From contig JANNQV010000035.1 in the NCBI GenBank assembly GCA_031400935.1, forward strand, positions 50,753 to 70,752: 20,000 nucleotides of DNA. Reading direction: 5' to 3'. How positions within the stretch are numbered: position 1 is the first letter of the stretch; the number at the start of each line of letters is the position of its first letter. Both the position numbers and the translations under genes were made by a program. The stretch comes from Armatimonadota bacterium (lineage in GTDB: Bacteria > Armatimonadota > Fimbriimonadia > Fimbriimonadales > Fimbriimonadaceae). The notes under the pieces were generated by a model. It had not been told where the DNA came from, did no database searches, and saw nothing but the letters and a program-made list of their open reading frames with translations. This document shows positions 14,670 to 20,000 of the stretch, in pieces.

Positions 14670-14713
14670 CCCCCACCCTAGCCCTCCCCCGTGGCTTCGC
14701 TCACTGGGGAGGG
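14670..14713. repeat. REP-like hairpin / possible bidirectional terminator between mdh and the tRNA 3' end
   Basis: CCCCCACCCTAG-CCCTCCCC...GGGGAGGG; same family as 8035-8081. Confidence 0.6.
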
Positions 14714-14724
14714 AATATAACAAA

Positions 14725-14772
14725 TGGCACCCTGAGCGGGACTCGAACCCACGACCCTCTGCTTAGAAGGCA
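14725..14772 (-). tRNA. 3' half of tRNA-Arg(TCT): displaced fragment / att site, not an intact tRNA
   Basis: Minus strand reads TGC-CTTCTAA-GCA-GAGGGTC-GTGGG-TTCGAGT-CCCGC-TCAGGGT-G-CCA: anticodon loop TCT, T-arm, acceptor 3' strand and CCA. No D-arm or matching acceptor 5' strand is present upstream. Confidence 0.85.
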
Positions 14773-15042: not shown

Positions 15043-15255
15043 CTACCAGTTTCTGCGGTTGGACTGAAACAGGGCGCAAATCTGCCGTAGCGCGACAAGG
15101 GTCATCAGGAAGCTGATAATCAGCACGCCTTTGGTTACCACCAGTTCAGTCGACGGCGTGTTTTTAATAAACACGTCGCCAACCGGATGAACGAGCGAAT
15201 AGCAGATTGCAAAAATCACAATTCCCAAGGCGGCGATGATGAGTGCTTTTATCAT
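15043..15255 (-). CDS. Small two-TM membrane protein
   Basis: 70 aa with two hydrophobic segments (ALIIAALGIVIFAICYSLV; LVVTKGVLIISFLMTLVAL). ATGA overlap with the upstream stop. Confidence 0.55.
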   Translation of the reverse strand: MIKALIIAALGIVIFAICYSLVHPVGDVFIKNTPSTELVVTKGVLIISFLMTLVALRQICALFQSNRRNW

Positions 15256-16112
15256 ACGTACGTTGACGGGAATAAATCCCGCAATTCAGCGAGCGCTCGC
15301 GCGATATTTAACTCAGAAAAAATTTCACGCTTAAGCTTGGGAGCCCATTCAGTATTCGTGGCGATAACATGCTTAACATTCTCCCCCGTGACTTCCGTTC
15401 CTCGCTCGATAAGATCAAGGGCGGCAAAATCAACGGTTGCCAATAACTCCAGATCATCGTTTGTTCGACGGCCCAGTTTATTAACGACCCATTCGACGGC
15501 CGAGCAAACTGAATAGCGGGAAAGATACTGGTCAATTCTGTCAATTTTGTCCCCCACCACGAACCCTTCGTAAACGCCAACCTTTGCGCGCTTAACATAA
15601 CCGTTTTTTAACGCGATGTTCTCCGGCCCTTGATACTTCGCCCAAGGGCTATATGGGCCAGCAGCTTTTTTGAGAAACTGTTCACTAACATCATGCTCCG
15701 CTTTTCGATGGGAGAGATAGCCCAGTTTATTATAGCGCTTACGTCCCAGTGGAAACTTTGACGTAGATATTAATCGGGTGAGTTGGGCAATCACCACGGC
15801 CTCGACAAACTCCTCCCTGACTTTAGGCGAAGGATTAGAAGCTCCACTCCTGTTGCACTTTGTTGCAGACATGGGAACAACGTTGTTGGCAACGACACTG
15901 ACTGCCGCATGCTCAATTTGATCGAGTATTGATGAGGGGTCTCGCAGCCGGGGAGGAACTGTAACCGGATACTTTTTCAGCCTTGCCTTGGCGAGTCTAA
16001 CTTCTTCGACGGTCTTTGGAATGATAACGCCTTCCTCTCTTAATGCTTGGCGTATCTTTTCATCGAGTGCGTCGGGTTTTGTGACCGGTTTGGATGGATC
16101 ACGGGGTTTCAT
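15252..16112 (-). CDS. Sigma-coupled two-domain protein: N-terminal putative anti-sigma segment plus a DarG-C-terminal/SocA(Panacea)-like domain
   Basis: ATG 16112 overlaps the sigma stop (ATGA); 286 aa. C-terminal motifs LGRKRYNKLGYL, KAAGPYS, LELLATVDF, EW..KL...FSE.NI..AL..L. Confidence 0.7.
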   Translation of the reverse strand: MKPRDPSKPVTKPDALDEKIRQALREEGVIIPKTVEEVRLAKARLKKYPVTVPPRLRDPSSILDQIEHAAVSVVANNVVPMSATKCNRSGASNPSPKVREEFVEAVVIAQLTRLISTSKFPLGRKRYNKLGYLSHRKAEHDVSEQFLKKAAGPYSPWAKYQGPENIALKNGYVKRAKVGVYEGFVVGDKIDRIDQYLSRYSVCSAVEWVVNKLGRRTNDDLELLATVDFAALDLIERGTEVTGENVKHVIATNTEWAPKLKREIFSELNIARALAELRDLFPSTYV

Positions 16113-16801
16113 TTTGGAATCTCTGCAGTTTTCTTGGTAGTTTTGTAATTCAAAAGCTTCTTGCGGGCGCGTTCCCAAATCTTTCTAAAATTTTCTCGCG
16201 ATATCCCCAAAGTCTCAACGATTTCGTCCAAATCTCTTGTGGGGGTGCGTTGCTGTTCACGGCATTCGTAAAACTGGCTCCTCGCCCAAATAACAGTCTG
16301 TTCTTTGGGGGACAAACTGTCGATGGCCGCGCGCATCAATTCTACGTCTTCAGCTTCCTCTCCCCAGACAATCTCCGGAACTTCAAAAACATCATCTTCG
16401 CCTTCTAGCAACGTCGGATCAAAATTGACGCACTTGGGCTTCCGTCTCAATAAATCAAAGAGGACATTCTCAGCGATTCCGCCCAGCCACGCGTCTGCCT
16501 TGTCTTTCAACTCATCGGCACCAACCAAGCCCTCAGCCTTAAAACTATCCGCACTTTTTAACGCCTTGATCATCGTTGCCTGGAACAGATCGAATTCATC
16601 AAAAAAACCAAATTTGTACCGGTTGGCCAAGTTGAAGCAAATGGCGTGTAAATAGTCAACATGCCGACGATAGAACGCAGCAGAGGCGTCCCGCCAAGCC
16701 CCAGCATCGCCTTTGGCAATGCTTGAAAGGAGCTTGTCGTCCTTTTCCGCGTCCCAGTTTGTTTTCAGGGGCGCTGCATCTTGTAGTGCCTGCTTTTCCA
16801 A
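16109..16801 (-). CDS. ECF-type (sigma-70 group 4) RNA polymerase sigma factor
   Basis: Region 2: DDKLL..IAKGD..A...FYRRH...DLFQATMIKA..F...AWLGGIAENVLFDLLRRK. Region 4: AIDSLSPKEQTVI...EIVETLGISRENFRKIWERARKKL. Start uncertain: TTG 16801 chosen; ATG 16843 and GTG 16819 fall in or at the edge of the repeat element. Confidence 0.88.
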   Translation of the reverse strand: MEKQALQDAAPLKTNWDAEKDDKLLSSIAKGDAGAWRDASAAFYRRHVDYLHAICFNLANRYKFGFFDEFDLFQATMIKALKSADSFKAEGLVGADELKDKADAWLGGIAENVLFDLLRRKPKCVNFDPTLLEGEDDVFEVPEIVWGEEAEDVELMRAAIDSLSPKEQTVIWARSQFYECREQQRTPTRDLDEIVETLGISRENFRKIWERARKKLLNYKTTKKTAEIPK

Positions 16802-16805
16802 ACCT

Positions 16806-16903
16806 TTTTTACCCTTCACTACTGATACGCAGGAGCGTGACATCCGGCCTTTCGTCAGTCCAGCGTTGTCACGCTCCTGCGTAACATCTTTGAAGGGGGA
16901 AAA
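16806..16903. promoter_or_regulatory. Mirror-image 37-bp elements (divergent twin promoters/operators) between the sigma and Ubl operons
   Basis: TGTCACGCTCCTGCGTA-N7-TGAAGGG-N2-AAAA on the + strand (16867-16903) and on the - strand (16842-16806); 17-bp perfect core, 30/37 overall, 24-bp spacer. Confidence 0.7.
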
Positions 16904-16964
16904 CGCAGGTCTGCAGGGTGCAGAAGATGCAATACCCCCCAATAACAACAAACACTGACAACAT

Positions 16965-18098
16965 ATGGCAACACGAAAACAATTCGAGCAAGGCGATGCC
17001 TTGCATAAACATACGACTGATTGTATCCCCGCGTCGAAGTGGGCTGCACTGATTGATGATGTCGTCGTTCCCGCGCCGCAACGCGAGGTTAAGGTCAGTG
17101 TCTTGCTGGCTCAGGCCGGAGCCAAGCCGGGGCAGGTTCTGGTTCGCGATCACGGCGGTGAGCAAGATACCGCAATTGAGGATAACGAAGTCCTCGACCT
17201 GGCAACGGGGAACGATTTTTACGTTGTTCCAAGCTGCGACGCGCCAAAGAAATGCCACTGCACCAAGCCCGCAAAACTCGCCTTATTTGTGGATGACCGG
17301 CCCGAGGTCACATTGAACCCGGAGCAAACAGGTAAAACCATCCGGGAACTGTTCGGCCTCAAAGCTGACGTCATTCTGGTTCGTGATTATGAGTCGGATC
17401 ACGACGAGCCGGTCGGGTTGGAAGATGCCGCGCCCTTTGGCAAGGGGCCGGTGTTCATCACCCGGCGGCAGCACGCCGCGCTCAAAATCATCGTGAACAG
17501 CAAACCATTCACGGAAACTGATGGCGTGAAGAAGCACATGACAGGCCGGCAAATCGCGGCGTTGGTCAGCGATTGCCCGGACAACACGGAAGTGTTCCTA
17601 CTGGAGCAAGGACATCAACCCAAAGCCGTACCGCTCGATCAGGAAATCCTGGTCAAGAATTGCGATGAGTTCCGGGTCATCCGCAACAATGTCGCCGGCG
17701 GTTTCGAGCCGTCGCGCATCCAGCGCGAGTTGGACTGGCTACGCCAAGGCGGCGGGCGCGCGGACTTCATCGAACAGCCCTTTGCTGCGGTCATTTATCG
17801 GGATGTTCCAACGCGTCCCGGTTACGCGCACCTTGCGCTGACAGATGTGCTCGTCATCGTGCCGGGTGGTTATCCCGGCCAGCCGCTGGATGGTGCTCAT
17901 CTGCCCGAAGGTTCGCCCTTGCTGGGCCGCGTCGCCGGCTCACCGCAAGGTGTCGTCGTGACCGCCGAGCGACGATGGCAACTCGTGAGCTATCACCCGC
18001 ACAACGGCGGTGGCGCTCCACCGTGGAACAAGGACAAACACGGCTTGCACACTTACTTCGATGAAATCCTTTGCTGGATTCACCGTGCCAACAACTGA
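16965..18098 (+). CDS. Multi-ubiquitin-domain protein (three beta-grasp Ubls ending VAGG) fused to a prokaryotic E2-like (Prok-E2_E type) domain
   Basis: Three repeated Ubl-like units (..IDD/VDD/VNS..TG..I..L..LVRD..D..F), internal Gly245-Gly246, then E2-like DVLVIVPGGYPGQPLDG and WQLVSYH...W...HGLHTYFDEI. Confidence 0.85.
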   Translation: MATRKQFEQGDALHKHTTDCIPASKWAALIDDVVVPAPQREVKVSVLLAQAGAKPGQVLVRDHGGEQDTAIEDNEVLDLATGNDFYVVPSCDAPKKCHCTKPAKLALFVDDRPEVTLNPEQTGKTIRELFGLKADVILVRDYESDHDEPVGLEDAAPFGKGPVFITRRQHAALKIIVNSKPFTETDGVKKHMTGRQIAALVSDCPDNTEVFLLEQGHQPKAVPLDQEILVKNCDEFRVIRNNVAGGFEPSRIQRELDWLRQGGGRADFIEQPFAAVIYRDVPTRPGYAHLALTDVLVIVPGGYPGQPLDGAHLPEGSPLLGRVAGSPQGVVVTAERRWQLVSYHPHNGGGAPPWNKDKHGLHTYFDEILCWIHRANN

Positions 18099-19614
18099 AC
18101 CGCTTCCAATGCATGCCGCGACCCACACGCAAACGTGTCTGTTTCGGATTACGGTAGCCGACCTGGAAAAACTGCAGGCGCTCTTGTTCAAGCGGTATCC
18201 GCACTGCGAGTGGGGCAGTTTCTTCCGGTTCGGTTACCGGGTAACGAAATGGGGACTTCACGTCAGCTTCGTTGATACGATGGAGCCACAGTCGGGTGAT
18301 CTTAAACGAGAAAGCGGCATCGTTGAGTTCAGCGCCGGCTATATCCTGCGCGCCCAACTGGCCTTGGCTGACATGGAGCTTGGTATCGGCGTCATCCATT
18401 CGCACCCGCAAGGAAGCAGCACATTTGCAAGCTCGCTAGATGATGACATGGACGGTTATTTCTCGCGTGAGTTCGCAACCTACGGCGAGGGCCGCCCGTA
18501 TGTGAGTTTGCGGGTGGCGCGAAATGCCGCCGGTGAGTTCTCCTTCAGCGGTGAAGCTTGGATCAACGGTGAGCGGATGCCGGCGACTAGCTGGCTGACG
18601 GTCGGCGAAGAGCTTCGGCGAGAAGGCGCAGAACGAAATTATCGGAACCGAGACACTTCCGAACCCGAGGACGAACGCACTGCACGATTCACAGAACTTG
18701 TTGGCCCACGTGTTGGTCGCCTCAAAGGCTCGTTTGTCGCCGTCATTGGTTGCAGCGGCTTGGGCTCGCCAGCGATTCACATCCTCGTTCGCGCCGGAGT
18801 GCGCCGGTTCGTTTTGGTTGATCCCGAGTATTTCGCTCCATCGAATCAAGAACGCATGCACGGGAGTAGCTGGCGCGATCTTGAGATCATTCCGTTGAAG
18901 GTTGAAATTCTCCGCCGGCTGATTCTCGACATTGAACCGACAGCGGAAGTCACAATTATTCGCGGAAACGTCCTCGATGAAACTGTCCTCGATGAAATCT
19001 TACGATGCGATTTGGTCTTGGGTTGCACGGATAGCCAACACAGCCGCGCAGCGCTGGGAGATTATGCTAGTCACTACTTGTTGCCGTGCATTGACGCCGC
19101 CGTGTTGATGCGGGCCAAGAACGGAAAGCTCAAAGAACAAGTCGGGGAGCTTGCCCGCTACTCACCAGACGAACCGTGTCCTTGGTGCTTGGGGCGCATC
19201 AATCAGAAAGCGCTTGCGTACGAACTTCTGACTGAACAAGAACGCGAGCAACGCGCGCGTGCCGCCGCGGACGCCGTCCAGCGCGGAGTGGACGGGGCGC
19301 AGTATTGGGGCGATAAGCCGCCGCGCGAATTGACCGTAGGCTACATGACAACCATGGTCGGCGCAATGCAGGCAGGCTACGCGGAAGGCTGGATTACTGG
19401 CGCGAGCTCAATGCCGCACCAGAGATTGCAGTTTGATCTCGGAATGCCACTGCTCGGCGTTGTCCCGTGCGAGAAGCCCCGAAGGGCAGAGTGCTCATGT
19501 AATTGGACAAAAGGTTGGGGAAATCAGGCGCGAGCGGAACGCAGCGTCACCATGCCTACTCACTGGCCGCGGGCTGAAATTATTCACGGAGAGAATTATC
19601 CCGCCGTTACGTGA
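18085..19614 (+). CDS. JAB/MPN metallopeptidase fused to a ThiF/E1-like adenylyltransferase
   Basis: JAB: EWG...IHSHPQG....SSLDD. E1: VAVIGCSGLGS, VDPE....SNQERM, LKVE, LGCTDS..SR, IDAAV, Zn ligands CPWC and C-terminal CSC. Start GTG 18085 (overlapping the upstream stop) or ATG 18109. Confidence 0.9.
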   Translation: MPTTEPLPMHAATHTQTCLFRITVADLEKLQALLFKRYPHCEWGSFFRFGYRVTKWGLHVSFVDTMEPQSGDLKRESGIVEFSAGYILRAQLALADMELGIGVIHSHPQGSSTFASSLDDDMDGYFSREFATYGEGRPYVSLRVARNAAGEFSFSGEAWINGERMPATSWLTVGEELRREGAERNYRNRDTSEPEDERTARFTELVGPRVGRLKGSFVAVIGCSGLGSPAIHILVRAGVRRFVLVDPEYFAPSNQERMHGSSWRDLEIIPLKVEILRRLILDIEPTAEVTIIRGNVLDETVLDEILRCDLVLGCTDSQHSRAALGDYASHYLLPCIDAAVLMRAKNGKLKEQVGELARYSPDEPCPWCLGRINQKALAYELLTEQEREQRARAAADAVQRGVDGAQYWGDKPPRELTVGYMTTMVGAMQAGYAEGWITGASSMPHQRLQFDLGMPLLGVVPCEKPRRAECSCNWTKGWGNQARAERSVTMPTHWPRAEIIHGENYPAVT

Positions 19615-19642: not shown

Positions 19643-19900
19643 TTATTTGTCCTTCTTTATCAGAAGACGCGCTTCAATGGCCATAGCAATGCGTATGAGC
19701 TGGTTCAACGTGATCCGTCCGGTCCTTCCAGCCTCGGCTCGTTGAATTGTGTCAACAGGGACACCTGATCTTTCAGCAACTGCCTCAATTGAGAGGCTGG
19801 CTTTATCACGCAAAGCGTGGATGTTTATCCCGAGCGTCAGTTTTTCAACTTCAATTTGGACCATGAGCTGTTCTCTGGGATTCTCCAAAAATCGTTTCAT
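19643..19900 (-). CDS. XRE/Cro-C1 family HTH protein (HigA antitoxin-like)
   Basis: IHALRDKASLSIEAVAERSGVPVDTIQRAEAG...ITLNQLIRIAMAI is a classic XRE HTH. Confidence 0.85.
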   Translation of the reverse strand: MKRFLENPREQLMVQIEVEKLTLGINIHALRDKASLSIEAVAERSGVPVDTIQRAEAGRTGRITLNQLIRIAMAIEARLLIKKDK

Positions 19901-20000
19901 TGCGACCCCATTGTCAGTATCATTATTATCATTTGGTTTGTTCCACTACTGTCCGGTTAAAAACCCCGGTAAAGAGGGTTGATTATGAGGGTCGGTGGTA

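Follow-up and report, generated by a model that had tools for sequence, protein, structure and literature searches.

The stretch of DNA analysed here, called the window, is a run of 20,000 nucleotides (nt) from an Armatimonadota bacterium (GenBank assembly GCA_031400935.1, contig JANNQV010000035.1) and forms the final 20 kb of contig C35 in a 2.97-Mb, 95.6%-complete genome. Positions 15043–19614 of the window hold five genes in two divergent operons, a plus-strand pair and a minus-strand trio, as judged from open reading frame (ORF) calls and direct reading. The locus is likely to be a mobile cassette of four genes, joined by one accessory gene, in which a Type I Bub-like ubiquitin-like (Ubl) conjugation operon without BubE is placed under a private extracytoplasmic function (ECF) sigma factor and a soluble, anti-sigma-like partner protein. 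To judge from sequence, the Ubl operon belongs to a described family and the new part is the sigma/partner regulator. The positions of the genes and other features are collected in Table 1.

Table 1. Features of the cassette and its surroundings, in window coordinates
Feature	Position	Strand	Details
Protein with two hydrophobic stretches, 70 amino acids (aa) ("2-TM")	15043-15255	-	start overlaps the partner stop (ATGA)
Partner, 286 aa	15252-16112	-	N-terminal helical region ~15-70, disordered linker 64-97, C-terminal domain 100-285
ECF-type sigma, 230 aa from the probable TTG start	16109-16801	-	TIGR02937 and Sigma70_r2 matches
Mirrored cis element	16806-16903	.	arms 16806-16842 and 16867-16903
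BubAB-like Ubl-E2 pre-protein, 377 aa	16965-18098	+	GG245-246 encoded at 17697-17702
BubCD-like JAB-E1	18109-19614 (ORF start 18010/18109)	+	JAB/JAMM peptidase fused to E1
tRNA-Arg(TCT) 3' 48 nt, displaced end	14725-14772	-	left island border
Xre-type helix-turn-helix (HTH) gene	19643-19900	-	convergent with the JAB-E1 end

The Ubl operon and its kinship to Type I Bub

An earlier note on this DNA had described an operon of (Ubl)x3-GG-E2 and JAB-E1 genes lying head-to-head with a sigma, partner and 2-TM trio coupled by ATGA overlaps, and this arrangement is confirmed by the sequence, domain matches and a structural model. The stop/start overlaps can be read directly at 16109–16112 (sigma/partner) and 15252–15255 (partner/2-TM), while the label 2-TM refers to two hydrophobic stretches visible in the translated ORF.

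Pfam matches the Ubl-E2 protein to Multi_ubiq (20.2 bits) and Prok-E2_E (16.7 bits), both under their cut-offs; among the 120 homologues listed for it, 29 carry PF14462 and most carry PF14452 in a precomputed column. An AlphaFold model of the protein, with a mean predicted local distance difference test (pLDDT) value of 77.7, contains beta-grasp domains at residues 26–89, 105–166 and 175–240, followed by a low-confidence linker that holds the invariant GG245-246 and by an alpha/beta E2-like domain at 249–376. The top Foldseek matches to this model are bacterial multi-ubiquitin proteins of E. coli and Citrobacter (9cd2_A, E 6.7e-11; 9d5a, E 9.4e-11). VIA-align places model residues 248–377 on 9eav_D, the BubB chain of the Citrobacter BubCD-BubB-BubA complex, at Z 9.5 and a root-mean-square deviation of 3.5 over 116 aligned residues, with other E2s lower at Z 6.5–6.7. 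All 28 homologues compared have S342-Y-H-P-H346 in their E2 part, which contains zero invariant cysteines; going by the invariant S342, H344 and H346, the E2 is probably of the serine type. At two related loci (L121 and L158) the Ubl-E2 matches span only residues ~170–377, the first two Ubl domains being seemingly lost.

The JAB-E1 protein matches ThiF at 87.2 bits and Prok-JAB at 18.8 bits in Pfam, the latter under its cut-off. Its JAMM features are an invariant E34 and H97-S-H99...S108..D111, and its E1 features are a GxGxxG motif at 214–219, zinc-type cysteine pairs at 357/360 and 462/464 and an invariant Y351 before the first pair. A profile of 15 homologues ranks Citrobacter BubCD (E 1.9e-21) first among solved sequences, before MoeB and ThiF, and the match covers both the JAB and the E1 parts.

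In the available text of Ye, Gong, Chambers and Corbett (PMC11601596), Type I Bub consists of BubAB, BubCD and BubE, the JAB domain cuts BubAB and conjugation proceeds via oxyesters; the system corresponds to operon type 6E.1 / 6e in the accessible part of Iyer, Burroughs and Aravind 2006 (PMC1779556). The window operon likewise has a Ubl-E2 fusion in which several beta-grasp domains and a GG precede the E2, a JAB-E1 fusion, an E2 fold nearest BubB, an E1 profile nearest Citrobacter BubCD, and an E2 with an invariant serine and histidines and no invariant cysteine. Its two proteins classify as BubAB and BubCD members, and its place in a tRNA-inserted island is also that reported for Citrobacter and E. 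coli operons in the part of PMC11601596 at hand. Unlike Type I Bub, the window branch has no BubE (DUF6527), its sequence similarity is remote, with neither the single Ubl-E2 sequence nor its profile matching any solved sequence, and its regulator is a sigma pair rather than CapW, CapH+CapP or CapK+CapS. Sequence and model together indicate that the Ubl operon is a Type I Bub-like (6E.1) variant made of BubAB and BubCD homologues without BubE.

BubE (PF20137/DUF6527) was not found in the window, in the 95.6%-complete genome that contains it or in four other host genomes, while a control genome was matched. None of the 123 ORFs that follow JAB-E1 in 16 metagenome loci matches it either, a count that leaves out the 10 ORFs of locus L095 (a duplicate of L094) and 42 ORFs of four genome loci, since the whole genomes of the latter had already been searched. 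The published census of 544 Bub operons was gathered through DUF6527, according to supplementary table 1 of PMC11601596, the part of that source on which we draw here, and therefore could not contain a BubE-less branch. The branch shows that BubAB and BubCD can exist without BubE, in a form invisible to a census based on DUF6527.

The earlier note had set the operon beside Bil, Bub and CBASS (cyclic oligonucleotide-based antiphage signalling system) Cap2/Cap3 operons. PADLOC returns only matches of the E1 region to Cap2-type models (best 2.3e-14), with no Bil/ISG15-like and no cyclase model among the matches, and identity with Bil or with CBASS Cap2/Cap3 was rejected.

Linkage of the sigma factor to the Ubl operon

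The sigma gene product matches TIGR02937 (sigma70-ECF) at 59.1 bits against a cut-off of 42.9 and Sigma70_r2 at 25 bits against 24, with Sigma70_r4 at 22.2 bits slightly under its cut-off of 24.1. It has the sigma-2 and sigma-4 domains only, as expected of an ECF (group 4) sigma factor. The longest ORF reaches 16951, with an ATG at 16843 and a TTG at 16801; a 93%-identical database protein has 230 residues, and the real start is probably the TTG at 16801.

A metagenome scan seeded with the Ubl-E2 alignment alone gave 80 loci (handles beginning with L), and we searched these with the proteins of the window and of four genome loci using tblastn; presence counts refer to 84 related loci. In 33 of the 80 metagenome loci the Ubl-E2 protein is at least 62% identical to that of the window, and 22 of these 33 have at least 750 nt of upstream sequence. 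A divergent upstream ECF sigma is present in 19 of these 22 close-clade loci. A second scan, of species genomes, was seeded with the partner and also gave 80 loci, including four with stand-alone partners of the full-length type (L007, L010, L011 and L022, the last frameshifted), and all four have the sigma, Ubl-E2 and JAB-E1 genes; the count refers to the stand-alone partner genes that were inspected, six mid-sized host ORFs falling outside it. The association of sigma and partner with Ubl operons elsewhere, which the earlier note had named as a check on its proposal, is thus borne out in both scans. Database searches gave 129 hits for the partner and 361 for Ubl-E2; in 18 pairs of the two the longest contigs (at least 4 kb) have identical lengths, an indirect hint of shared contigs that we do not count as evidence. 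The partner itself is scarce in the phylum: 2 of 401 species genomes have it, the window's own among them.

At L011 the four genes stand alone, flanked by direct repeats (242 nt, 86% identity) in which the end of a transporter gene is duplicated. From this locus and the stand-alone loci the core unit is therefore four genes, and the five-gene unit of the earlier note has to be reduced accordingly. The 2-TM gene is accessory: among the 84 related loci it occurs only at L087 (81% identity) and L090 (57%), and it is absent from L007, L010, L011 and L022.

The sigma factors of the close clade fall into two unrelated-looking types, A and B, of which the window has type A. The type-A family is small, with only 23 proteins at E<=1e-5 among 5.8 billion clusters, and 12 of 12 scanned type-B sigmas match TIGR02937. 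The type of the partner N-terminus (first 75 residues) equals the type of the sigma in 21 of 21 readable loci (8 A/A and 13 B/B), with zero cross matches. Types A and B are intermixed in the maximum-likelihood Ubl-E2 tree, whose well-supported branches require the type to have changed at least four times. The window (type A) and L087 (type B), for example, have 91–92% identity in Ubl-E2 by tblastn and in the tree, and their intergenic DNA is unrelated as far as the start codon. Each change of sigma type thus goes with a change of the Ubl promoter region, as expected if the sigma reads this region.

The intergenic DNA itself contains the mirror-image element that the earlier note had seen between the operons, and this element proves to be real, conserved among relatives and specific to the sigma type. 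Its two 37-nt arms are 81% complementary, with a perfect inner 16 nt, and lie 24 nt apart. In the window they are two outward-facing copies of TGTCACGC-N4-GCGT-N8-TGAAGG. All 9 type-A loci have the type-A core motif, GTCAC[GA]N-N4-[GC][CG]GT, on both strands, and 0 of 30 type-B arms have it; a type-B motif, TTGNKYY-N15-18-CGRG, is present on 28 of 30 type-B arms and 0 of 18 type-A arms, with a mean of 0.28 of 30 in shuffles. Both motifs have the same ECF-promoter layout, an 8-nt element, 16 nt and a second element, facing outward. The mirrored element is therefore read as a putative pair of back-to-back sigma-dependent promoters, one for the sigma operon and one for the Ubl operon. With RNAalifold, the only structure recovered from nine type-A leaders was the invariant ACGC/GCGT mini-palindrome. 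A short hairpin was also seen by eye following both motifs on the Ubl side, approximately 12 nt after the TGAAGG box.

It is extremely improbable, in our estimate, that the two operons are mere neighbours on mobile islands, with the sigma regulating itself or distant genes and the mirrored element serving as another factor's operator or as an RNA hairpin. Defence islands do pack unrelated genes together, the ACGC-N4-GCGT palindrome in the arms could bind a dimer, and the sigma is missing from some close loci and from the whole far clade. Against this, the promoter-like motif on the Ubl side switches with the sigma type across the at least four swaps, and a motif of the same geometry lies on both sides. 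In the window's own genome the type-A core motif occurs solely at this locus (2 matches, compared with 0–2 in shuffles); this and the small size of the type-A family speak for a dedicated sigma. The cassette also has no other conserved DNA-binding protein, the window HTH gene having been found by tblastn in none of the 84 related loci. This gene matches HTH_31 at 37.3 bits and capH weakly (E 0.0026), and the contig stops 100 nt beyond it; within the window it is without an M78 neighbour and does not form a CapH+CapP pair.

A dedicated sigma for the Ubl operon differs from the regulators described for Bub. In the available text of PMC11601596 and PMC13373217, Bub operons occur with CapW (8%), CapH+CapP (31%) or CapK+CapS (59 of 544). 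Like the sigma pair, CapH+CapP, CapW/BrxR and CapK+CapS stand as a two-gene module divergent at a Bub-type promoter, and at L111 a CapH/CapP-like pair fills the sigma-pair slot. These regulators, however, are described in the accessible text as repressors whose block is lifted after DNA damage through cleavage, a ligand or phosphorylation, whereas the DNA reader of the cassette would be an alternative sigma acting positively, with a predicted protein inhibitor.

Control of defence loci by an ECF sigma has a precedent in DdvS/DdvA of Myxococcus xanthus (PMC11506125), where, in the part of the source at hand, an ECF sigma and a transmembrane anti-sigma control a CBASS/CRISPR island. Both cases combine an ECF sigma and a cognate partner with an adjacent defence-type locus that has E1/E2/JAB-like genes. 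Compared by description, DdvA is a membrane protein of ~900 residues with TPR-CHAT, whereas the cassette partner is soluble, has 286 residues and is DarG-like at its C-terminus, and DdvS/DdvA controls CBASS/CRISPR, whereas the target in the cassette is a Bub-like operon. In the published literature, with one table of the supplements covered, we found no sigma-type regulator of Bub-like operons and no BubE-less branch. The term "sigma factor" is absent from the text of the Bub preprint (PMC11601596), and in the available part of the CapK paper "sigma" refers to anti-sigma-type kinases. The earlier note's claim of a new system thus stands for the regulator, for which no published description was found, and falls for the Ubl operon, a variant of Type I Bub / 6E.1.

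The partner protein and the proposed switch

The earlier note gave its dedicated sigma a soluble partner, and binding between the two is predicted by a complex model. With the sigma and partner residues 1–75 the prediction scored 0.77, compared with 0.11 for the best control. Of the solved complexes 116 of 157 reach this mark, and of the mismatched pairs 2 of 215; the alignments used had 21 rows for the sigma and 19 for the partner piece. At least 58% of the contacts recur between runs, the partner has pLDDT values of at least 65, and the interface would be formed by partner residues 30–67 and sigma residues 37–114, which are the sigma-2 domain. The model therefore supports binding of the partner N-terminus to the sigma.

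When the partner is modelled alone, helices at 15–26, 35–47 and 59–70 are of low confidence, the linker is disordered and the C-terminal domain has pLDDT values above 90. Foldseek matches this domain to the C-terminal domain (CTD) of M. tuberculosis DarG (7yk3_B, E 3e-5, 20% identity, target TM-score 0.60), and PADLOC matches it to its DarG model at 1.8e-6 over model positions 163–326. Partner residues ~100–285 thus have the fold of the toxin-binding domain of DarG (PDB 7yk3). Unlike DarG, the partner is without a macrodomain and has no DarT nearby: neither was found in Pfam and PADLOC scans of the locus genes, and the locus does not classify as DarTG. Going by the title of a 2023 paper by Deep et al., cited in PMC12170906, the DarG domain is said to keep DarT inhibited by single-stranded DNA mimicry.

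The domain is common to both regulator types at 58–73% identity. In 21 loci it is clear in 15, weak in 1 and replaced or absent in 5; at L089, L091 and L116 the N-terminal piece is a separate protein of 137–150 residues, followed by an unrelated protein of 356–378 residues. Outside the cassette, in 68 of the 80 species-genome loci, the DarG-CTD-like domain is a C-terminal extension of host ORFs of at least 547 residues from many phyla, typically ~600–700 residues long (L008–L086), with two records labelled archaeal. The single host ORF checked by Pfam (L024) is a type I restriction S subunit behind HsdM, and database names and PF01420 tags agree with such hosts. In one further genome (G022) the domain lies inside an open frame of 1616 residues. 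The C-terminal domain of the partner may be a protein-binding or sensor module.

The same findings could be read in another way, in which the partner is a working part of the pathway, such as an effector or antitoxin-like protein (with the 2-TM protein as toxin in some copies), a substrate, an adaptor or a stand-in for BubE, and the sigma regulates both. We consider this unlikely. The C-terminal fold is indeed that of an antitoxin's toxin-binding domain, BubE is missing, and a small hydrophobic protein is translationally coupled downstream in the window and at L087, but the scarcity of the 2-TM gene in the related loci speaks against a toxin role. Of 21 loci, moreover, 5 have lost or exchanged the C-terminal domain, whereas none has given up the N-terminus that matches the sigma; the sigma-binding part is therefore the constant one. 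A protein atlas adds one lead, since the cluster nearest to the partner among named ones has SocA_Panacea in 13% of its members (score 0.83, a lead only). Pfam, however, gives no SocA_Panacea or protease match even at E 10, and a SocA/Panacea (PF13274) identity was rejected; indeed neither the partner nor the 2-TM protein has any Pfam match at that threshold.

It is also very unlikely that the partner activates the sigma, or acts as an adaptor or co-sigma, instead of inhibiting it, although the pair would then still be the switch of the Ubl operon. Such a role would agree with predicted contacts on sigma-2 only (37–114), with the partner matching no known anti-sigma domain in Pfam, and with the strict type-for-type pairing, which fits any obligate partner. 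Variable "sensor" ends on a constant sigma-binding piece are, on the other hand, typical of anti-sigmas. In ECF systems the anti-sigma is usually co-transcribed downstream of the sigma with coupled translation, and the partner, downstream of the sigma and translationally coupled to it, has this usual layout.

The reading that we prefer, an anti-sigma-like partner holding a private sigma of the Ubl operon, has a number of points against it. Of the 22 close loci, three have no sigma (L111, L113 and L158): L111 has an HTH gene and a Peptidase_M78 gene (CapH/CapP-like, IrrE-type) exactly in the sigma-pair slot, L113 has an HTH gene in place of the pair, and at L158 the Ubl gene is truncated. The 47 distant loci (Ubl-E2 identity of 59% or less) gave no sigma or partner by tblastn, and the Ubl operon therefore does not need the sigma/partner regulator. 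The metagenome loci, among which L094 and L095 are duplicates, are not independent samples. Sigma A and B could not be joined as one family (hhalign E 0.033, not significant), nor could the partner N-termini of types A, B and X, the last from the distant clade described below (E 0.079, 0.005 over 17 columns and 0.11, not significant); types A and B are called the same module because of position and architecture, as homology is not demonstrable.

The promoters add further points of this kind. In type-A loci a TGA stands at the fixed spacing on 13 of 18 arms (9 of 9 on the Ubl side and 4 of 9 on the sigma side), and the two motifs were counted in the very sequences from which they had been derived. 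The parse of the type-A promoter is uncertain, leaving the conserved GCGT block without explanation, and the GAAGGG on the sigma side, 9 nt ahead of the TTG, could instead serve as a ribosome-binding site. As for the partner, its N-terminus modelled alone reaches pLDDT values of only 41–66, the complex score may lean on solved sigma/anti-sigma complexes, and instead of inhibiting the sigma the partner could activate it or be a component of the pathway. Phage protection has also not been demonstrated for canonical Bub in the available text of PMC13373217.

Every step of the proposed mechanism, which we consider likely overall, is one that we infer; comparative evidence speaks well for the sigma/partner switch itself. 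At rest, the N-terminal helices of the partner (residues ~30–67) would bind sigma-2 and keep the sigma off RNA polymerase. The DarG-CTD-like domain would receive a signal, for example a phage- or stress-derived ligand, upon which the sigma would be released and would read the two mirrored promoters (TGTCAC...TGAAGG), raising its own operon and turning on the Ubl operon. The JAB domain of JAB-E1 would then cut the pre-protein after GG246 into a triple-beta-grasp Ubl and a serine-type E2. The E1 would adenylate the Ubl, which would pass to the E2 as a serine oxyester and from there to target proteins, as for Citrobacter Bub.

If this is true, a private positive sigma switch with a swappable sensor would be a control logic unlike that of the three known repressor-type Bub regulators, and expression of the sigma or deletion of the partner would be a simple handle to turn on a Bub-like pathway and find its targets. 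A broader version, which we regard as doubtful, is that sigma and partner add to the known "controller of adjacent pathway" classes of bacterial immune-type operons a fourth one that acts positively, in which a private ECF sigma is held by a modular anti-sigma and this modular anti-sigma with an interchangeable sensor end, mostly DarG-CTD-like and a general sensor of a phage-derived or anti-restriction signal, induces BubE-less, serine-based Ubl conjugation. The C-terminal domain of the partner would link three defence contexts, namely DarG, type I restriction S subunits and the sigma switch, and its ligand is worth finding.

Island setting and distant relatives

The earlier note placed the module on a tRNA-integrated island, and comparison with a same-genus genome confirms it. 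ARAGORN finds no tRNA in the window, and the displaced end listed in Table 1 matches letter for letter the final 48 nt of a complete tRNA-Arg(TCT) in the same-genus genome, which there lies directly 3' of the same mdh (malate/lactate dehydrogenase) gene as in the window. The far junction is a hybrid tRNA-Arg(TCT) near the start of contig C15 (474–547) of the window's genome. This hybrid and the window fragment have a common 34-nt core (97%), the core repeat lying at C15:485–518, and the C15 flank behind the hybrid matches the right flank of the same-genus genome at 81% over 848 nt. These sequences indicate that the cassette lies at the left border of an island that has entered tRNA-Arg(TCT). 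The assembly breaks inside the island, the contig ending at window position 20000.

The 5' part of the hybrid tRNA resembles the same-genus tRNA, while its 3' part differs (island-derived) and the acceptor stem is imperfect by eye. It is the only tct tRNA-Arg that ARAGORN found in the assembly. After the dehydrogenase gene, window positions 14670–14717 hold a G+C-rich, hairpin-like repeat of ~48 nt (CCCTCCCC...GGGGAGGG), with further copies on contigs C15, C20 and C50 of the same assembly and in the same-genus genome.

The distant clade has neighbourhoods of its own. At L125, L137, L140, L146, L147, L148, L150 and L159 a Bub-like operon is divergent from a four-gene operon that encodes a protein of ~200 residues ("X"), a protein of 122–127 residues, a PD-(D/E)XK nuclease and a protein of 800–900 residues. 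The L120 homologue of this last protein has a weak Piwi match (E 6e-4), which suggests a recurrent Bub-Argonaute neighbourhood in this clade. At L120, L122, L124, L156 and L161 the position of CapH+CapP is taken by a trio of a 195–230-residue protein, a 136–147-residue protein and an IrrE-type Peptidase_M78. Among 13 X proteins (those of 195–230 or ~200 residues upstream of the operon) a match to TIGR02937 was seen in only one; the trio may be a sigma/anti-sigma/protease version of the switch. The X proteins could not be joined to the family of sigma A or B, the profile-profile E values of 0.13 and 0.26 being not significant.

A tblastn search of plasmid records found no relative, and no RNA run was listed as containing the stretch. 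The flanks downstream of JAB-E1 vary by locus and have a mobile or defence-like look at L092, L097, L098, L100 and L109, where the genes include an integrase fragment, a Replic_Relax protein, an HNH protein with a BrnT toxin, a DUF4145 protein and a JetA fragment.

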